Shown here: positions 63 through 7,350 of the stretch, piece by piece
Position numbering within the stretch: the first letter of the stretch is position 1
Layout: each line of letters begins with the position of its first letter
From: Geobacter sulfurreducens PCA
GTDB taxonomy: Bacteria; Desulfobacterota; Desulfuromonadia; Geobacterales; Geobacteraceae
Assembly (NCBI RefSeq): GCF_000007985.2
Contig: NC_002939.5
Coordinates: 2,130,001 to 2,162,000 of the forward strand
Length of the DNA stretch: 32,000 bases
Direction of reading: 5' to 3'
Notes under the pieces: generated by a model
Seen by the model: the letters and a program-made list of their open reading frames with translations, nothing else
Database searches by the model: none
Told to the model about the DNA's origin: nothing
Made by a program: the position numbers and the translations under genes

Positions 63-3000
63 TTACCAGGTCGTCAGACCAACCGCCCGGCGCAGAAGAA
101 TCAGTACATCGTTGATGTCAATCTTGCCGTTGCCGACCGGCTTGGAGGTAACCGGATCGACCGGCGCCACATCACCCATGCTCTGCACTGTCGAGGTCAA
201 CAGGGTGGGATCCGCGACCGCCTTGAGAACGATGAGCGCGTCATTGGCCGTAATCGCTCCGTCGCCATCCACATCGCCCTTGATGATCACGATGTTATTG
301 ACGGTTACGGTTACGGCGGTCGAAACCTTCGAGTTGCCGGCCGCATCATAGGCCTTGGCGGTCAGGCTGTAGACGCCGTTAGCAACGGTGGAGGTATCCC
401 AGCTGTAGCTGTAGGGAGAGGTCGTATCCGTGCTCGCGAGGACATTGTTGACGTAGAATTCGACTTTGGCAACTGCCAGGTTGTCCGTTGCGGTGGCATT
501 GACGGAGACGACACCGCTTACCGTTGCGCCGCTGGTCGGGGCCGACAGTGACACGGTCGGCGCGGTTGCATCGTTGGCGACCTTCACCGTCACGGTTGTC
601 TCGCCGATATTGCCTGCCGCATCATAGGCCTTGGCGGTCAGGGTATGGGTGCCATCACTTACGGAGGTCGTGTTGAGGCTGTAGGTAAAGGGCGAGCTCG
701 TGTCGGTGCGCTTGAGCACGTTGTCCAGGTAGAACTCGACCTTGGTCACCTTCACGTTGTCCGATGCACTGGCGCTGACGGTAATGCTTCCTTTGACGGT
801 CGCGTTATTGGCCGGAGAAGTGATCGATACGGTCGGCGCAGTGGTGTCGCCGATCTGGTTGTTCACCGTTACCGATACGGAGGTAGATTGGCCGATGTTG
901 CCGGCAGCGTCATAGGCCTTGGCAGTCAGGGTGTAGGTGCCGTTGGCCGAGGTCGTGGTGTTCCAGCTGTAGCTGTAAGGGGCGGTTGTCACCGTGGAAG
1001 CGACCGTGCCGTTCACCATGAATTCCACCTTGGTCACGCCCACGTTGTCAGAGGCTGTTGCGCTGACGGTCACCGTTCCGCTCACGGTCGCACCATTAGC
1101 CGGGGCACTCACCGCCACCGTCGGAGCAGCAGTATCGGACGGCAGATTGTAGGTTACCACCAGTTTCGGCCGCAGATTGGTATCGGACGCCTCGCTGGAA
1201 GCGAAGAGCCTGTAGCTGTCAACGGCGGCCTTGTTGGAGGAGTTGAGCAGAACACCCCTGTTGGCGGCCGGCGTCGCCAGCCAGGTCTTGACCAGATTGG
1301 TTATATTCCAGGCTTTATAACCAACGGTCTTGTCAACCAGAGGTGCATCAACCGGCGTGTCGATATCGGACTGGGCCAGGGGCACCCCGCCGTAAGCCAC
1401 ACTGCTCGCGGTCCAGGCATTGGTCCCGTCGTAGGTATTGCCAGTGCTTGAAGCGACAACCGGGTTCTTGTTGATGATGGCGGAGACCGGAATTTCGTAA
1501 GCGTCGTCACCACCGCCTTCAGTCAGGTAGAGGTAGAGCGTGGCGCTCTGGATCTCGGCATTGGCAGGCAGTGCGGAAACGTCCCACTTCATCACGACTG
1601 CGTTGGCCGGCGTGGCAGCGGGCCAGGTATAGGTGCTGAGGCTTACGCCGGTGGCGTTCACGTCGTCGTTGATATTCAGGAAGGTGTCTTCCACGGTATT
1701 CGGGAAATTGGCGCCAAAGGCATTACCGAAGATGGCCGTGTTGCTTCCCGACGGGGGAGTCGTCACATTGTTCACGCTCACGGTTACGCTGCTCGACTGC
1801 CCCACATTGCCCGCCGCGTCATAAGCCTTGGCGGTCAGGGAGTAGCTGCCGTTGACCGTGGAGGTGGTATCCCAGCTGTAGTTGTAGGGAGACGTCGTAT
1901 CCGACCCTTTGAGCACGTTGTTCACATAGAATTCGACCTTGCTCACACCGACGTTGTCCGACGCCGTGGCGGCCATACTCACCGTACCGGTCACGGTTGC
2001 ACCATTGGCGGGGGAGCTCACGGCAACGGTCGGAACCGTGGTATCGGCGACCGTATTGCTTACGGTGACCGTAACCGAGGAAGACTGACCAACGTTGCCC
2101 GCCGCGTCATAAGCCTTGGCGGTCAGGGAGTAGCTGCCGTTGGCCGTGGAGGTGGTATCCCAGCTGTAGTTGTAGGGAGACGTCGTATCCGACCCCTTGA
2201 GCACGTTGTTCACATAGAATTCGACCTTGCTCACACCGACGTTGTCCGACGCCGTGGCGGCCATGCTCACCGTACCGGTCACGGTCGCGCCATTGGCGGG
2301 GGAGCTCACGGCAACGGTCGGAACCGTGGTGTCGGCGACCGTATTGCTTACGGTGACTGCCACCGAGGAAGACTGACCAACGTTGCCCGCCGCGTCATAA
2401 GCCTTGGCCTGGAGGGTGTACGACCCGTTGGCATACGACGAGGTGTTCCAGGTTATCGAGTAGGGAGCCGAACCGTAGGTCGCGTAAAGGGAACCATTAA
2501 CATAGAGCTCCACCTTTGACACGCCCATGGCGTCGGTGGCGGAAACGTTTACCGTAACGGTTCCCGACACGGTTGAACTGCTGGTCGGAGAGGTAATGGA
2601 AGCCGTAGGAGCCGTCGTATCATTTACCACTGTCACGGAAAACGCCGTGGACTGTCCCACGTTCCCGGCGGCGTCGTACGCTTTGGCCTGGAGAGTGTGA
2701 GTGCCGGCGGAAAGCTGGGTGGTGTTCAGGCTCACACTGTACGGAGATGAGGTGTCGGTTCCTTTGAGGACGCCGTCCACATAGAGTTCAACCGATGTGA
2801 CGCCCACATTGTCAGTGGCGCTGATGGCAACGCTGGTGGTACCGGAGATGGACGAGCCCGAGGCGGGGGATGTAATCGAAACGGTGGGGGCAGTTGCTTC
2901 GGCCGCGCTTACGATATTTGAGTAGGTGCTTTCAGTGCCGGTGGCATCGTAGGCGGTGACGGCGAAATAATAGGTCTTGCTCGGGTCGAGACCGGTGAGA

Positions 3001-3206
3001 GTGGTGGAGGTCACTTTGCCGACCGTTCCGGTCCCGCTGAAGGGAGGGCCTGCCGAGTCGGCGTTGTAGTAGACCTTGTAGCCGGCAACGGTCGTTTCAG
3101 TGTTTGCATCCCACTGCAGGGTCACGTCCCGGGCCTGGCTGGCTGCCACCATGGTAAAACTGAGCAGCCAGGCAAGAATAAGAGTTGTTAGCGTGCGGGT
3201 TTTCAT
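63..3206 (-). CDS. Large secreted surface protein: signal peptide, FN3, 4 Ig-like repeats, DNRLRE/CBM-like beta-sandwich module, 3 Ig-like repeats, C-terminal dockerin-type repeat pair
   Basis: The ORF spans 63..3281. I place the start at ATG 3206, giving MKTRTLTTLILAWLLSFTMVAASQA, a typical signal peptide, with AAGGAG 7 nt upstream. Seven repeats end in the AKAYDAAGN motif. The central block runs from WDVSALPANAEIQSATLYLYL to SSEASDTNLRPKLVVTY. The tail carries GDVDGDGAITANDALIVL and GNGKIDINDVLILL, which are dockerin-like Ca-binding repeats. Confidence 0.85.
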   Translation of the reverse strand: MKTRTLTTLILAWLLSFTMVAASQARDVTLQWDANTETTVAGYKVYYNADSAGPPFSGTGTVGKVTSTTLTGLDPSKTYYFAVTAYDATGTESTYSNIVSAAEATAPTVSITSPASGSSISGTTSVAISATDNVGVTSVELYVDGVLKGTDTSSPYSVSLNTTQLSAGTHTLQAKAYDAAGNVGQSTAFSVTVVNDTTAPTASITSPTSSSTVSGTVTVNVSATDAMGVSKVELYVNGSLYATYGSAPYSITWNTSSYANGSYTLQAKAYDAAGNVGQSSSVAVTVSNTVADTTVPTVAVSSPANGATVTGTVSMAATASDNVGVSKVEFYVNNVLKGSDTTSPYNYSWDTTSTANGSYSLTAKAYDAAGNVGQSSSVTVTVSNTVADTTVPTVAVSSPANGATVTGTVSMAATASDNVGVSKVEFYVNNVLKGSDTTSPYNYSWDTTSTVNGSYSLTAKAYDAAGNVGQSSSVTVSVNNVTTPPSGSNTAIFGNAFGANFPNTVEDTFLNINDDVNATGVSLSTYTWPAATPANAVVMKWDVSALPANAEIQSATLYLYLTEGGGDDAYEIPVSAIINKNPVVASSTGNTYDGTNAWTASSVAYGGVPLAQSDIDTPVDAPLVDKTVGYKAWNITNLVKTWLATPAANRGVLLNSSNKAAVDSYRLFASSEASDTNLRPKLVVTYNLPSDTAAPTVAVSAPANGATVSGTVTVSATASDNVGVTKVEFMVNGTVASTVTTAPYSYSWNTTTSANGTYTLTAKAYDAAGNIGQSTSVSVTVNNQIGDTTAPTVSITSPANNATVKGSITVSASASDNVKVTKVEFYLDNVLKRTDTSSPFTYSLNTTSVSDGTHTLTAKAYDAAGNIGETTVTVKVANDATAPTVSLSAPTSGATVSGVVSVNATATDNLAVAKVEFYVNNVLASTDTTSPYSYSWDTSTVANGVYSLTAKAYDAAGNSKVSTAVTVTVNNIVIIKGDVDGDGAITANDALIVLKAVADPTLLTSTVQSMGDVAPVDPVTSKPVGNGKIDINDVLILLRRAVGLTTW
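1809..2384. repeat. Two near-identical 288-bp tandem units inside the surface-protein gene; a third copy begins at 2385 but diverges within a few dozen nt
   Basis: The anchor string gcccgccgcgtcataagcc occurs at 1809, 2097 and 2385, a period of 288 nt or 96 aa. Manual alignment of units 1809-2096 and 2097-2384 shows about 9 mismatches. The protein repeat is TVADTTVPTVAVSSPANGATVTGTVSMAATASDNVGVSKVEFYVNNVLKGSDTTSPYNYSWDTTST.NGSYSLTAKAYDAAGNVGQSSSVTV. Confidence 0.9.
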
Positions 3207-3279: not shown

Positions 3280-3337
3280 AAAAAAGAGAAACAGCCCGCC
3301 TTAGTCTTTTGATGGACTAATGAGGAACCTGTTTCTC
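3280..3337 (-). terminator. Intrinsic terminator forming the expression platform of A-type aptamer copy 1
   Basis: On the minus-strand RNA, GAGAAACAG (3337-3329) pairs with CUGUUUCUC (3294-3286) and is followed by UUUUUU (3285-3280). The 5' arm contains the aptamer's 3' P1 strand GAAACAG, so P1 and the terminator are mutually exclusive. Confidence 0.7.
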
Positions 3338-3428
3338 GCCAACCCGGCTATCCTGAAAACCCTAGGACATTTCAGGACCCGTAGCTTTGTGTCCCCAGGT
3401 TACCCTGGGTTTACCCCTTCGGAAACAG
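3329..3428 (-). promoter_or_regulatory. GEMM-I class (c-di-GMP-I / cGAMP family) riboswitch aptamer, A-type copy 1
   Basis: The minus-strand RNA reads CUGUUUCCGAAGGGGUAAACCCAGGGUAACCUGGGGACACAAAGCUACGGGUCCUGAAAUGUCCUAGGGUUUUCAGGAUAGCCGGGUUGGCGAGAAACAG. It matches the remembered Vc2/GEMM-I pattern GGGCAAACC-[hairpin with GNRA loop]-GGGACGCAAAGCC-[P2]-AGCNGGGUU. P1 is CUGUUUC/GAAACAG. One hairpin is CCCAGG-GUAA-CCUGGG and P2 is UCCUGAAA/UUUCAGGA. Confidence 0.75.
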
Positions 3429-3570: not shown

Positions 3571-3629
3571 AAAAAAAACAAAAAAAAGCCGGGGCCGTAT
3601 ACCATTTCAGGCATTTCGGCAACCCGGCT
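3571..3629 (-). terminator. Intrinsic terminator overlapping the 3' strand of B-type aptamer copy 1
   Basis: The minus RNA reads CCGGG-UU-GCCG [19-nt loop] CGGC-C-CCGG, followed by CUUUUUUUUGUUUUUUUU. The 5' arm is the conserved AGCCGGGUUGCCG strand of the aptamer. Confidence 0.65.
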
Positions 3630-3697
3630 GTCTCTGTGAGACCCTGTAGGCTTTCCGCCCCATCCTCGCGGATGGTTGAGTATTATCGTGTACCGCC
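3613..3697 (-). promoter_or_regulatory. Divergent GEMM-I-like aptamer, B-type copy 1
   Basis: The minus RNA reads GGCGGUACACGAUAAUACUCAACCAUCCGCGAGGAUGGGGCGGAAAGCCUACAGGGUCUCACAGAGACAGCCGGGUUGCCGAAAU. It has the GEMM-I layout: AACC, then a GNRA-capped hairpin (CCAUCC-GCGA-GGAUGG), GGNNGNAAAGCC, a short P2 (GUCUC/GAGAC) and AGCCGGGUUGCCG. The junction strands are non-canonical. Confidence 0.6.
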
Positions 3698-3717: not shown

Positions 3718-3746
3718 TTGATACACCCCTTTGTCCCCCCTGTCAA
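3718..3746 (-). promoter_or_regulatory. Candidate sigma70-type promoter for leader cassette 1
   Basis: The minus strand reads TTGACA (3746-3741), a 17-nt spacer, then TATCAA (3723-3718), about 20 nt upstream of the B-type aptamer. The analogous TTGACT-17-TACTAA occurs in cassette 2. Confidence 0.4.
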
Positions 3747-3869: not shown

Positions 3870-4835
3870 TTAGGGCACGACCTTGAAAATCCTGAGATTC
3901 TTCGGCGCCGACAAAACTTCCGGCGGCACCGATCCGCAGCCAATGGGCTGGGTCGATACGACTACGTTATCGATAAGCTCTCCGACGGTTGAATGGGTAC
4001 CGTCATGATGATAAAGGCTCAACCAGAGATTCCGGATTTTGAGGGACGATGTGGTTCTGATCCACAGATCCTGATAGTCACCCAGCAGCTTTGAATCCAG
4101 CCAAGTCGCCAGGCGACCGTCCGCTCCCACCCCCGTAGTGGTTGGCGTGCCCATATCGAGCATTTGCTCGACGCAGTACCACTGCCCCGCCACCAAGTTA
4201 GGAAGGGATTCTGTCGGACGATGCTGCGGTTGTTTGCAGTAATATGCCCCGCTGTCGTAGACGCAGGGCAATGAGTCGCCCCAGCAATTGCCAGACGGAT
4301 TGGAGCAGTCCTGGTACATGCCCCGGTAGTAGCTGTAGGCATAGGGCGTTGCAGGACCTTCCATGTACTGCACGAAAAAGCCGGCCCAGTCACTACCGGT
4401 TGGCCTGATGCCGGATGCTCCGACCAGATTCCGGTCTCCAGCCGCCAAACCACCGCCGTGATTACGGGCACTGAAGTTGAACCCTGGTTCATACATGAAG
4501 TACCAGCGAGCATAGAGTTTGTCATACCCGGAAGATAGGACTTTAAACAGATCGGATCCCCCGCCCTGCCCTGCAGGCACCCGCAAACGGATTGCCCGGT
4601 TCGCAGGATCACCTGCTGGTCCCGTGTTGGTCACAATAAGGTTTTCCGTGTCAGGATTGCCGTCGTAGTCGCTGAAGTTGGCCTTGGGATTAGTTCCCTC
4701 GAAATCCTCGCAAAAAACTGTTCCTGCAGGGGGATTCGAGCATTCGTTCCGCGAGATGCCTGCCGACGCCATGCCGGCGGCGAGCAACAAAAAGGCTGAA
4801 ACGAGGCAACCTGTTCTCGTGAATGAAAGTTCCAT
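3870..4835 (-). CDS. Secreted hypothetical protein, possibly a jelly-roll (ConA/LamG-like) glycan-acting fold
   Basis: The ORF spans 3870..4856. I prefer ATG 4835 (MELSFTRTGCLVSAFLLLAAGMASAG, a signal peptide) because GGAG lies 8 nt upstream. It is Cys-rich. The C-terminal strand GELIDNVVVS is typical of lectin/lyase jelly rolls. Only 14-35 nt separate it from the upstream gene, so it is likely co-transcribed. Confidence 0.7.
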   Translation of the reverse strand: MELSFTRTGCLVSAFLLLAAGMASAGISRNECSNPPAGTVFCEDFEGTNPKANFSDYDGNPDTENLIVTNTGPAGDPANRAIRLRVPAGQGGGSDLFKVLSSGYDKLYARWYFMYEPGFNFSARNHGGGLAAGDRNLVGASGIRPTGSDWAGFFVQYMEGPATPYAYSYYRGMYQDCSNPSGNCWGDSLPCVYDSGAYYCKQPQHRPTESLPNLVAGQWYCVEQMLDMGTPTTTGVGADGRLATWLDSKLLGDYQDLWIRTTSSLKIRNLWLSLYHHDGTHSTVGELIDNVVVSTQPIGCGSVPPEVLSAPKNLRIFKVVP

Positions 4836-4870: not shown

Positions 4871-5950
4871 TCAGTTAACAACCTTGAGACCACTGGGAGG
4901 CGCTATTGTTGCGGTTCCCCCACCCGAGCTGGTACCAAACGTAATCTGCTTGCTGGCGCTGGGACTACCATTGGCATCAACCACATAGAGATACGCCGTA
5001 GAGTTGGTGGGAAAACTTCCTTGGTTAACCGTAACCTGCAACTGCCCGTCAGTCCAGGTATTGGTGGGAATCTGCATTTCGCATTTAGTTGCACTGGAGA
5101 AGTTGGCATTGTCACATATCATGACACGAGAGAAGGTGTTATCAACATATATGTCGTCCATCCACGAAGTGATTGCTGGTGGAGAGTTTCCGCCAGCATC
5201 CCACCCAATCATCCAAACATAGTCAAAGTTAAACGCTGCACAATTAGCCCAAGAAGAATTGTTAGCTAAATATTTGCCATTTATTTTAAGCGAATACGTT
5301 CTGCTAGCACCATCAATCATTACTTCGTGAAAGTTCCATTGGCCAACATTGCCATTCCAATTAGCCCAGCCTTCGTTATTACAATAACCTGTATCGCTTC
5401 TATAAATATAATTGTGCATCTGGGTCCATGACATGGTTTTGTTAGACACATCAGAGCTACTGGACAATCTTATAAACTTACTGGAATGATCACCTGATAC
5501 TGGATTGGTTCCAGGCTTCCACCACCAAGAGACATAGATTTTATTAGTTCCAGCAATTCGCCGACCCTCCAGTAATCCCTGGGTTGTACTTGTGGCTCTG
5601 TAAGTCGCTGTGCTCAACCCACGCTGTTCGCTGGCCGTAGTTGAATACTTTACACAAGCGCCGCCATCCCAGGTGCATTGTGTTTCCCAAGGCTTACCTG
5701 ACCCAGTCGGGACAGTTGCCCCATTGGCAAGTCCCGAATACGCTGATTGGTTTTCCACGGTATCCCAGAACTGGGGCGCCACCGTAGTCTTTGCGCCAAA
5801 TCCGCTACCCGAGATGGTAACTACTTGGCCATTGGAGAGCGTTGAGTTACTCACCGATGTAATCGACGGGGCAGCGAGAGCGCCGAGCGGAACCAGAAGT
5901 GGAATGAGGAGTGACGGGACTAACGCCTGAAGAGTCCTCTTGGTTTTCAT
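4871..5950 (-). CDS. Secreted IPT/TIG-like + LamG/ConA-like domain hypothetical protein
   Basis: The start is ATG 5950 with GGGAGG upstream. MKTKRTLQALVPSLLIPLLVPLGALAAP is a signal peptide. SITSVSNSTLSNGQVVTISGSGFG is IPT/TIG-like. The central region WWWKPG..., WMDDIYVDN is jelly-roll-like. A second IPT-like beta domain lies near the C-terminus. Confidence 0.75.
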   Translation of the reverse strand: MKTKRTLQALVPSLLIPLLVPLGALAAPSITSVSNSTLSNGQVVTISGSGFGAKTTVAPQFWDTVENQSAYSGLANGATVPTGSGKPWETQCTWDGGACVKYSTTASEQRGLSTATYRATSTTQGLLEGRRIAGTNKIYVSWWWKPGTNPVSGDHSSKFIRLSSSSDVSNKTMSWTQMHNYIYRSDTGYCNNEGWANWNGNVGQWNFHEVMIDGASRTYSLKINGKYLANNSSWANCAAFNFDYVWMIGWDAGGNSPPAITSWMDDIYVDNTFSRVMICDNANFSSATKCEMQIPTNTWTDGQLQVTVNQGSFPTNSTAYLYVVDANGSPSASKQITFGTSSGGGTATIAPPSGLKVVN

Positions 5951-6070: not shown

Positions 6071-6166
6071 CTTCGCCAACCCGGCCATCCTGAAATACCT
6101 AGGACGATTTCAGGACCCGTGGCTTTGTGTCACCAGGTTACCCTGGTTTTACCTCTTCGGAAACAG
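6065..6166 (-). promoter_or_regulatory. GEMM-I class riboswitch aptamer, A-type copy 2
   Basis: The minus RNA reads CUGUUUCCGAAGAGGUAAAACCAGGGUAACCUGGUGACACAAAGCCACGGGUCCUGAAAUCGUCCUAGGUAUUUCAGGAUGGCCGGGUUGGCGAAGAAACAG. The architecture is the same as 3329..3428. Two differences are compensatory: CCCAGG/CCUGGG becomes ACCAGG/CCUGGU, and GCUA/UAGC becomes GCCA/UGGC. Confidence 0.75.
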
Positions 6167-6234: not shown

Positions 6235-6258
6235 AAAGCCCCATTTGACCTATCAGAC

Positions 6259-6310
6259 AAAAAAAATGCCGGGAGCCGCTACCCATGAACTGGTATTTCG
6301 GCAACCCGGC
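6259..6310 (-). terminator. Intrinsic terminator overlapping B-type aptamer copy 2
   Basis: The minus RNA reads GCCGGG-UU-GCCG [loop] CGGC-U-CCCGGC followed by AUUUUUUUU. Confidence 0.65.
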
Positions 6311-6379
6311 TGTCTCGTGGAGACCCTATAGGCTTTCCGCCCCATTCTCGCGAATGGTTTAGTATTATCGTCTACCGCC
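6295..6379 (-). promoter_or_regulatory. Divergent GEMM-I-like aptamer, B-type copy 2
   Basis: The minus RNA reads GGCGGUAGACGAUAAUACUAAACCAUUCGCGAGAAUGGGGCGGAAAGCCUAUAGGGUCUCCACGAGACAGCCGGGUUGCCGAAAU. Relative to copy 1, the hairpin changes from CCAUCC/GGAUGG to CCAUUC/GAAUGG, which is compensatory. Confidence 0.6.
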
Positions 6380-6391
6380 TGCTTTGTGCTT

Positions 6392-6420
6392 TTAGTACAT
6401 GAGTTGACGGTTCAAGTCAA
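6392..6420 (-). promoter_or_regulatory. Candidate sigma70-type promoter for leader cassette 2
   Basis: The minus strand reads TTGACT (6420-6415), a 17-nt spacer, then TACTAA (6397-6392). The layout parallels cassette 1. Confidence 0.35.
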
Positions 6421-6675: not shown

Positions 6676-7350
6676 ATGATACCCCCAGGCAAGTTATCTC
6701 TTATTATGCTTTTAACATTGTTACTGGCGGGGCCTTCCGCGTGGAGCTACCCCGTGCAATACACGTTGGATGGGTACGTAATTCAGGGCCCCGGCATTGA
6801 TGATTCGGCAGGCTTTCTTGACAATATGGGGATTACCGTGGGAAGTCATGTTTCCTACACCGTTGTCATAGACCTGGATGCCAGAGGGACGGTGTTAATG
6901 AGTGACGGCACCGTAACCGAGCGGACAGACCCGTATGGTAGAGGGACATTCTATGCTCACTACGCCGGGGGCTCGACCATCACTTCTGACAATTATCTGA
7001 GCTCATACAATGGAATATCCGAAAACAACTATGGCGGGAACAAGTGGTTGACCAGCACCTTTTCTGAACGCTGGCTCAGTGTGAGCAGTGGAAACAACTA
7101 TCTTTCGTTCTACGACATGCTGCTGCAACCGGATGCCCTCGGGGGGTGGTCGGCAAGTTCCGCTCGCGCTTTCGGGGCCGGCACCATGCGCAACACCATT
7201 TTCGACGAGTTCGGTAACAGTTCCAAATTCTACTTCCTGGCTCAAATAACGAACGCAGAAACCGTTCCCGTGCCCGAACCATCAACCTTCGCACTTCTTG
7301 GGGCCGGACTTGCCGGAATTATCCTTCTCAGAAGAAAGAAGTACTTTTAA
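6676..7350 (+). CDS. PEP-CTERM sorting-domain secreted protein
   Basis: GAGGAGGG lies upstream of the ATG. There is an N-terminal signal peptide (LLTLLLAGPSAWS). The C-terminus VPVPEPSTFALLGAGLAGIILLRRKKYF has the VPEP motif, a TM helix and a basic tail. Confidence 0.9.
   Translation: MIPPGKLSLIMLLTLLLAGPSAWSYPVQYTLDGYVIQGPGIDDSAGFLDNMGITVGSHVSYTVVIDLDARGTVLMSDGTVTERTDPYGRGTFYAHYAGGSTITSDNYLSSYNGISENNYGGNKWLTSTFSERWLSVSSGNNYLSFYDMLLQPDALGGWSASSARAFGAGTMRNTIFDEFGNSSKFYFLAQITNAETVPVPEPSTFALLGAGLAGIILLRRKKYF

Follow-up and report, generated by a model that had tools for sequence, protein, structure and literature searches.

The element at positions 6297 to 6373 on the minus strand of the stretch of Geobacter sulfurreducens PCA DNA analyzed here (32,000 nucleotides of contig NC_002939.5, termed the window) is very probably a GEMM-Ib aptamer that senses 3′,3′-cGAMP and works as an ON switch; the GSU1948 leader contains two riboswitches, of which this is the upstream one. 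The element is already known: it is annotated as GSUR3012 and counted among the cGAMP riboswitches in published RNA-seq work, which disposes of the novelty implied by the first-pass annotation. The window contains four matches to the Rfam family RF01051 (c-di-GMP-I; gathering score 35), all on the minus strand: two of A-type and two of B-type. Read 5′ to 3′ on this strand, each leader consists of a B-type aptamer, a terminator, an A-type aptamer, a terminator, and the gene. GSU1948 is the first gene under the tandem leader running from 6373 to 6072, with GSU1947 (3870–4835) next, and GSU1945 lies under the tandem leader running from 3691 to 3335. The features are as follows:

6297–6373, minus strand: B-type aptamer GSUR3012 (GSU1948a), probable GEMM-Ib or cGAMP-type GEMM-I, matching the full RF01051 model (1–87)

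6259–6310, minus strand: predicted intrinsic terminator of this B-type riboswitch, from the minimum free energy fold of 6252–6381

6072–6163, minus strand: A-type aptamer GSUR3011 (GSU1948b), RF01051 score 60.7 bits, alignment UUGGCGAA, terminator to about 6019

4871–5950, minus strand: GSU1948, secreted IPT/TIG-domain protein (Pfam TIG), exact match to AAR35324.1

3615–3691, minus strand: B-type aptamer GSUR3010 (GSU1945a), RF01051 match, with its own terminator ending in a U-tract near 3580

3335–3425, minus strand: A-type aptamer GSUR3009 (GSU1945b), RF01051 score 61.1 bits, same pocket variant as GSUR3011

63–3206, minus strand: GSU1945, surface protein with fn3/Big_7 repeats (Pfam), exact match to AAR35321.1

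The sequence of the first B-type copy (6373 to 6297) is AGACGAUAAUACUAAACCAUUCGCGAGAAUGGGGCGGAAAGCCUAUAGGGUCUCCACGAGACAGCCGGGUUGCCGAA; the second copy (3691 to 3615) contains, in this order, AAUACUCAACC, GGGGCGGAAAGCC, and GGGUCUCACAGAGAC. The junction strands of the B-type read AAUACU(A/C)AACC and GGGGCGGAAAGCC. The register was fixed by covariance-model alignment to RF01051, in which the B-type has no insertions or deletions up to position 44. This places three pocket residues of the first copy:

6363 (3681 in the second copy), minus strand: A at the position of Vc2 G20 and Gs1761 A14, model position 11

6336, minus strand: A at the position of Vc2 A47 and Gs1761 A41, model position 38, the residue that intercalates between the ligand bases

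6301, minus strand: C at the position of Vc2 C92 and Gs1761 C75, model position 83, the Watson–Crick partner of G-beta

Both B-type copies carry A/A/C at G20/A47/C92 in this alignment. The guanine at G20 of canonical c-di-GMP-selective GEMM-I aptamers, which reads the Hoogsteen face of G-alpha, is replaced by A in both. The first-pass annotation had aligned these strands by hand and allowed that correct gapping might restore canonical pocket residues; the covariance model gives A/A/C instead. The G20-equivalent residue reads the alpha base and determines cGAMP recognition (PMC6140456), and what defines GEMM-Ib is an A in place of G20 alongside retained A47 and C92 (PMC6140456; PMC9481103).

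The departures from the consensus that had been described as common to both B-type copies—the lack of a G-run, GGCGG in place of GACGC, and the distal helix GUCUC/GAGAC—are indeed common to both, and the strings quoted for them (AUACUAAACC or AUACUCAACC, GGGGCGGAAAGCC, and GUCUC/GAGAC) are all present. Two details had to be corrected: the lack of a tetraloop receptor is no mark of the B-type, as the A-types also lack the CUAA/UAUG receptor columns in the covariance-model alignment, and the second A-type string reads GGUGACACAAAGCC, not GGACACAAAGCY preceded by G. The missing G-run, and GGCGG instead of GACGC, follow from the B-type junction pairs C12–G37 and U13–G36, which are G–C and C–G in Vc2. 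The view that the pocket departs from the canonical one therefore holds at G20; the word "remodelled" does not, as the rest is the normal scaffold of the class (C–G/U–G, GGC). GGCGG alone is not the cGAMP determinant, because G20 also occurs with CC/GG (10 sequences) and CU/GG (3 sequences) and A20 also occurs on GU/AC (4 metagenomic sequences).

Positions 34 and 81 (G6340 and U6303 in the B-type of the window) are unpaired in the Rfam consensus structure, yet vary jointly. Among the matches listed, 176 aptamers carry G/U (113), A/U (50), A/C (11), or G/C (2) and no other combination at these positions, a pattern that suggests an unannotated junction pair of Watson–Crick, wobble, or A·C type.

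The closest described system is Gs1761 (PDB 4YAZ), a GEMM-Ib or c-AMP-GMP riboswitch upstream of pgcA (GSU1761). Its segments are P1 (G1–G8/C76–G84), J1/2 (A9–A14), P2 (C15–G40), J2/3 (A41), P3 (A42–U73), and J1/3 (G74–C75), and its ligand contacts are G8, A9, A11, A12, A14, C15, G40, A41, A42, and C75. The segments of the window RNA correspond to these: the last base of P1 is G, the 6-nt J1/2 reads AUAAUA, P2 (26 nt) opens with C and closes with G, J2/3 consists of a single A, P3 (33 nt) opens with A and closes with U, and J1/3 is GC, with a C after it. The matching layout puts the same base at every named contact residue—10 of 10, when mapped by the published numbering and segment boundaries and not by sequence alignment. 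Besides these contacts, the two RNAs share the organism, the fold, the P2 length (26 nt), GCGA-type loops, a terminator-based ON platform, and GacA-dependent expression. The window RNA differs from Gs1761 in a P3 longer by 1 nt owing to the internal loop UAUA, in a few covarying stem pairs, and in being the first member of a tandem whose second member is another aptamer type. By this comparison, the B-type pocket appears to be the known cGAMP pocket and not a newly remodelled one. Of the two ligands that had been considered, 3′3′-cGAMP—as in Geobacter GEMM-Ib—is favored by the A/A/C pocket and the contact identity with Gs1761, and "something else" loses its ground, as every named contact residue is that of Gs1761.

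Vc2 of Vibrio cholerae, the canonical c-di-GMP-I aptamer, shares with the B-type the three-helix junction, the A47 and C92 equivalents, and the Rfam family RF01051. In contrast to Vc2, the B-type has A at G20, junction pairs C–G/U–G instead of G–C/C–G, a central GGC instead of GAC, and a short distal helix without the 11-nt receptor motif; its putative ligand is cGAMP instead of c-di-GMP. The G20-to-A signature is said to have defined cGAMP riboswitches in 2015, in work on G. sulfurreducens attributed to Kellenberger and to Nelson.

The minimum free energy fold of 6252–6381 (−50.6 kcal/mol, z = −4.2) contains a terminator hairpin, in which GCCGGG..GCCG pairs with GCGGC.CCCGGC, followed by a U8 tract. 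The 5′ arm of this terminator, GCCGGGUUGCCG, comprises the P3 3′ strand, the C92 equivalent, and the P1 3′ strand; the 3′ arm is GCGGCUCCCGGC, followed by AUUUUUUUU. Since the arm GCCGGGUUGCCG is common to aptamer and terminator, the two folds are mutually exclusive. A terminator-based ON switch, as predicted from this folding, is very probable. Terminators were assigned from folding and from reading the sequence; the loops of the four riboswitch terminators are longer than 8 nt, so a simple terminator scanner reported none of them.

In the proposed mechanism, by homology to Gs1761, the ligand would sit in the three-way junction. The adenine of the ligand would be paired through its Hoogsteen edge by A6363 (the G20 equivalent), the guanine would form a Watson–Crick pair with C6301 (the C92 equivalent), and A6336 would be stacked between both bases. 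Binding would stabilize P1 and P3 and keep GCCGGGUUGCCG in the aptamer, so that the terminator at 6310–6259 would be blocked and RNA polymerase would read through. The read-through transcript would next meet the A-type riboswitch with its own terminator, and then GSU1948; the same arrangement in the second copy would control GSU1945. The mechanism resembles that of the pilM cGAMP riboswitch of Geobacter metallireducens, likewise an ON switch whose terminator pairs with the aptamer 3′ strand and sequesters the ligand-pairing C—for pilM, the sequestration of C75 by terminator formation was established by NMR and ITC (PMC9262584). A like overlap is seen in the window at 6310–6299. The pilM system differs in that it controls a pilus assembly gene by a single riboswitch, and kinetic parameters are known for pilM only.

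The dependence on cGAMP in vivo comes from the literature. GSUR3012 maps to PCA 2141579–2141698, and a constant offset of +2135322 leads from window coordinates to those of the PMC6456294 supplement; this offset fits GSU1945, GSU1948, GSUR3009 (GSU1945b), GSUR3010, GSUR3011 (GSU1948b), and GSUR3012. The legend of the expression table of Hallberg et al. 2019 (PMC6456294) states that cGAMP riboswitches are highlighted. RNA of GSUR3012 amounts to 67 in wild type, 153 in ΔesnD, and 4 in ΔgacA (PMC6456294 supplement; n = 2). Deletion of the cGAMP synthase GacA hence lowers GSUR3012 RNA about 17-fold (PMC6456294), a drop that is measured on the riboswitch region itself and could include promoter or RNA stability effects. 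GSU1948 falls from 272 in wild type to 58 in ΔgacA (PMC6456294 supplement), and the ON-switch model agrees with this loss of downstream RNA. GSU1948 and GSU1945 both stand in the 13-gene riboswitch table of a 2022 follow-up paper, the main text of which refers to these as the 13 GEMM-Ib riboswitches; according to the same paper, 12 of 17 G. sulfurreducens GEMM-I RNAs bind cGAMP. GSUR3012 itself presumably binds cGAMP directly and selectively. The aptamer sequence strings, used as queries in a full-text literature search, returned unrelated papers only.

Putative sigma-70-like promoters were read by eye just upstream of the B-types on the minus strand: TTGACT-17-TACTAA (6392–6420) and TTGACA-17-TATCAA (3718–3746). 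A consensus promoter scanner reported neither of them, and its own matches in the window are not credible. The riboswitch-controlled surface-protein genes adjoin a PEP-CTERM protein gene, beside which lies a long gene run with a glycosyltransferase, an asparagine synthase, PGA_cap, and an AMP-binding enzyme (window 6676–7350, plus strand, and 7416–31955, mostly minus strand). The region 6676–31955 looks like an exopolysaccharide or exosortase-type locus.

An aptamer of the same fold and mechanism might be bispecific, taking both cGAMP and, with the A at the G20 position protonated, c-di-GMP. Precedents exist: both ligands are bound by the Vc2 G20A mutant and by certain natural GEMM-Ib RNAs, Cbe 1-2 for example, and c-di-GMP binding via a protonated adenine was seen for Gs1761 too (PMC6140456). 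For GSUR3012, bispecificity is nonetheless improbable, as its pocket and scaffold match those of Gs1761 with its roughly 1200-fold preference for cGAMP, and its expression collapses in ΔgacA with no significant change in c-di-GMP levels. A pocket remodelled for another ligand, such as c-di-AMP, cUMP-AMP, pGpG, or 2′3′-cGAMP, is very unlikely. What speaks for it is only the earlier impression that several junction bases are unlike Vc2, and all of these differences are common to Gs1761 and more than 100 relatives; in addition, the C92 equivalent, which demands G in the beta site, is retained, and expression depends on the cGAMP synthase.

One genome per species was scanned with the pattern GGCGGAAAGCC-N(10–40)-ACAGCCGGG, which yielded at least 120 stretches, among the matches listed mostly from Geobacter, Geomonas, and other Desulfuromonadales. 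A covariance model, R1, was made from 44 of these sequences and the window copies and was run over all fetched genome and metagenome loci. Among the matches listed from genomes and metagenomes, 176 distinct GEMM-I aptamers could be parsed. The search of relatives for the B-type variant that the first-pass annotation had envisaged thereby finds A/A/C at G20/A47/C92 in 117 of the 176, and the CU/GG scaffold of the window in 114 of these 117, mostly in Geobacter and other Desulfuromonadales, in each case among the matches listed. The share of A/A/C pockets makes the B-type the ordinary Geobacter form. Four metagenomic aptamers on a GU/AC scaffold like that of the A-type (L130, L151, L158, and L232) have A at the G20 position and near-identical siblings with G; their sequences suggest separate G20-to-A changes on a scaffold other than the Geobacter CU/GG one.

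The B-type copies score 45.7 bits (E = 4.8e-6; 6297–6373) and 43.1 bits (E = 2.1e-5; 3615–3691) with RF01051. The lower Rfam score of the B-type compared with the A-type arises because the model is dominated by c-di-GMP-type sequences. With R1, made from relatives, the scores are 98.8 bits for the first copy and 97.8 bits for the second, the top score anywhere being 102.6; the B-type family scores are far beyond chance. In the alignment of 44 relatives, 95% of cells are paired and 14 of 24 pairs are changed on both sides. None of 500 shuffles matches the observed values, and slid controls are 37–47% paired. The three-way junction—two hairpin arms on the P1 stem—is supported by this covariation. 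Truncated or scrambled B-types, whose 5′ half is lost or rearranged, occur next to intact tandem copies at L021:4941–5005 and L123:6725–6800 and show the look of a genuinely decayed family member. That GSUR3012 is a decayed, non-functional copy is hardly credible, as nothing specific speaks for it beyond an RF01051 score below that of the A-type copies, and its family-model score is near the maximum, its helices and terminator are intact, and the truly decayed copies look different.

The A-type aptamers had served as the canonical reference for the B-type, a role for which they are unsuited: they have G at the C92 position. Both contain the equivalents of G20 and A47 and have G at position 83 (C92) at high posterior probability. 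The consensus UUG-C-CGA is UUG-G-CGA in the A-types, and the C92-equivalent bases lie within UUGGCGA near 6077 and 3339. Both A-types also have G at model position 9, which corresponds to Vc2 A18 and Gs1761 A12; A12 of Gs1761 hydrogen-bonds the ligand. The terminator of GSUR3009 consists of GAGAAACAG and CUGUUUCUC-U6 and extends to about 3280.

When metagenomes were scanned with no base fixed at position 83 (GACACAAAGC-N(25–55)-GCCGGGTTG), C83 was found in about 50 genuine aptamers of the GU/AC scaffold, and G83 only in sequences with the whole A-type scaffold (L135, L141/L237, L168, and L229). The canonical aptamers nearest to the latter (L144, L155, L156, and others) share their length and P1 and have C instead of G at position 83, so the register of the A-type is not in doubt. 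An alternative register, in which C84 would pair with the ligand and G6 would be unpaired, was rejected, as the canonical relatives of the same length and P1 differ only at position 83. Among the leaders of GSU1945 orthologues, L366 is a further G83 copy, and L367 and L368 have A83, with the A-type after the B-type as in the window. L182, on an unrelated scaffold, has U at position 83. All G83, A83, and U83 sequences have G at position 9; of the G20-class aptamers that keep C83, 50 of 51 have A at position 9. The association of positions 9 and 83 has, in the parsed aptamers, a Fisher p of 1.7e-7 without phylogenetic correction and occurs in at least two independent lineages. As read from these sequences, the A18-to-G change and the loss of C92 appear to be a coupled change of the pocket that includes a second ligand-contacting residue. 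Direct pairing of positions 9 and 83 is unlikely, as G9 is never found with C83, and the variety of bases at position 83 (G, A, or U) argues against a single fixed Watson–Crick partner.

Four related contigs have the A-type as the sole aptamer ahead of the orthologous gene, with its own terminator overlapping P1, so that it functions as an ON riboswitch by itself. Candidates for its ligand are c-di-GMP recognized differently, cGAMP in a flipped orientation, or something else. The ratio of the GSU1945 gene to riboswitch "b" is about 4 in wild type and ΔgacA alike (PMC6456294), which, at tiny counts, is a hint that cGAMP is dispensable for the A-type. A literature search for the A-type pocket (C92G, A18G, Rfam variants) returned nothing, and a scan of viral contigs for aptamers carrying G or U in place of C92 returned 120 stretches, of which none proved to be a true GEMM-I aptamer.

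Tandem arrangements within 400 nt were tallied over all loci: 20 are A20 followed by A20, besides two triples, four are G20 followed by A20, and one is G20 followed by G20. An A20 aptamer followed by one of the G/A/G type occurs in the window only in that tally; L367 and L368, found later, have A20 followed by the A83 form. In other Geobacterales, the leaders of GSU1945 orthologues contain B only, A only, B–B, or B–A, and this variety indicates that, over evolution, either aptamer type can replace or supplement the other at that gene. L038, L081, L092, and L109 have a G20 aptamer on a B-type scaffold (AAUGCU...) and an A20 aptamer about 110–140 nt later, for example L038:1358–1442 and 1552–1636; their sequences make them candidates for two-input leaders responding to c-di-GMP and cGAMP. 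The tandem riboswitch logic gates of Sherlock et al. 2022 (PMC9481103) likewise consist of two complete riboswitches in series, each with a terminator. That review lists homotypic c-di-GMP-I tandems and AdoCbl/c-AMP-GMP gates, and the accessible part of its Table 2 has no entry for a pair of c-AMP-GMP and c-di-GMP-I type. The window differs from the gates given there by its combination of an A20 aptamer and a following G20 aptamer without C92.

It is possible, if doubtful, that the A-types form a small conserved clade in which the site of the beta base has been rebuilt, with a new recognition mode or a ligand other than those of c-di-GMP-I and GEMM-Ib, and that the tandem leaders are two-input gates as a consequence.

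The B-type finding is of little significance in itself—the G20-to-A change was rediscovered from raw sequence at an annotated locus. It serves as a positive control: chemical reasoning from sequence reached the right ligand. The A-type, which lacks the C that pairs with the second guanine of the ligand and carries the coupled A18-to-G change, is worth attention if uncharacterized. Should the tentative reading of the A-type be true, the leaders of GSU1948 and GSU1945 would be natural two-input gates that respond to cGAMP and a second signal, and the A-type clade would add an undescribed specificity to a classic riboswitch.
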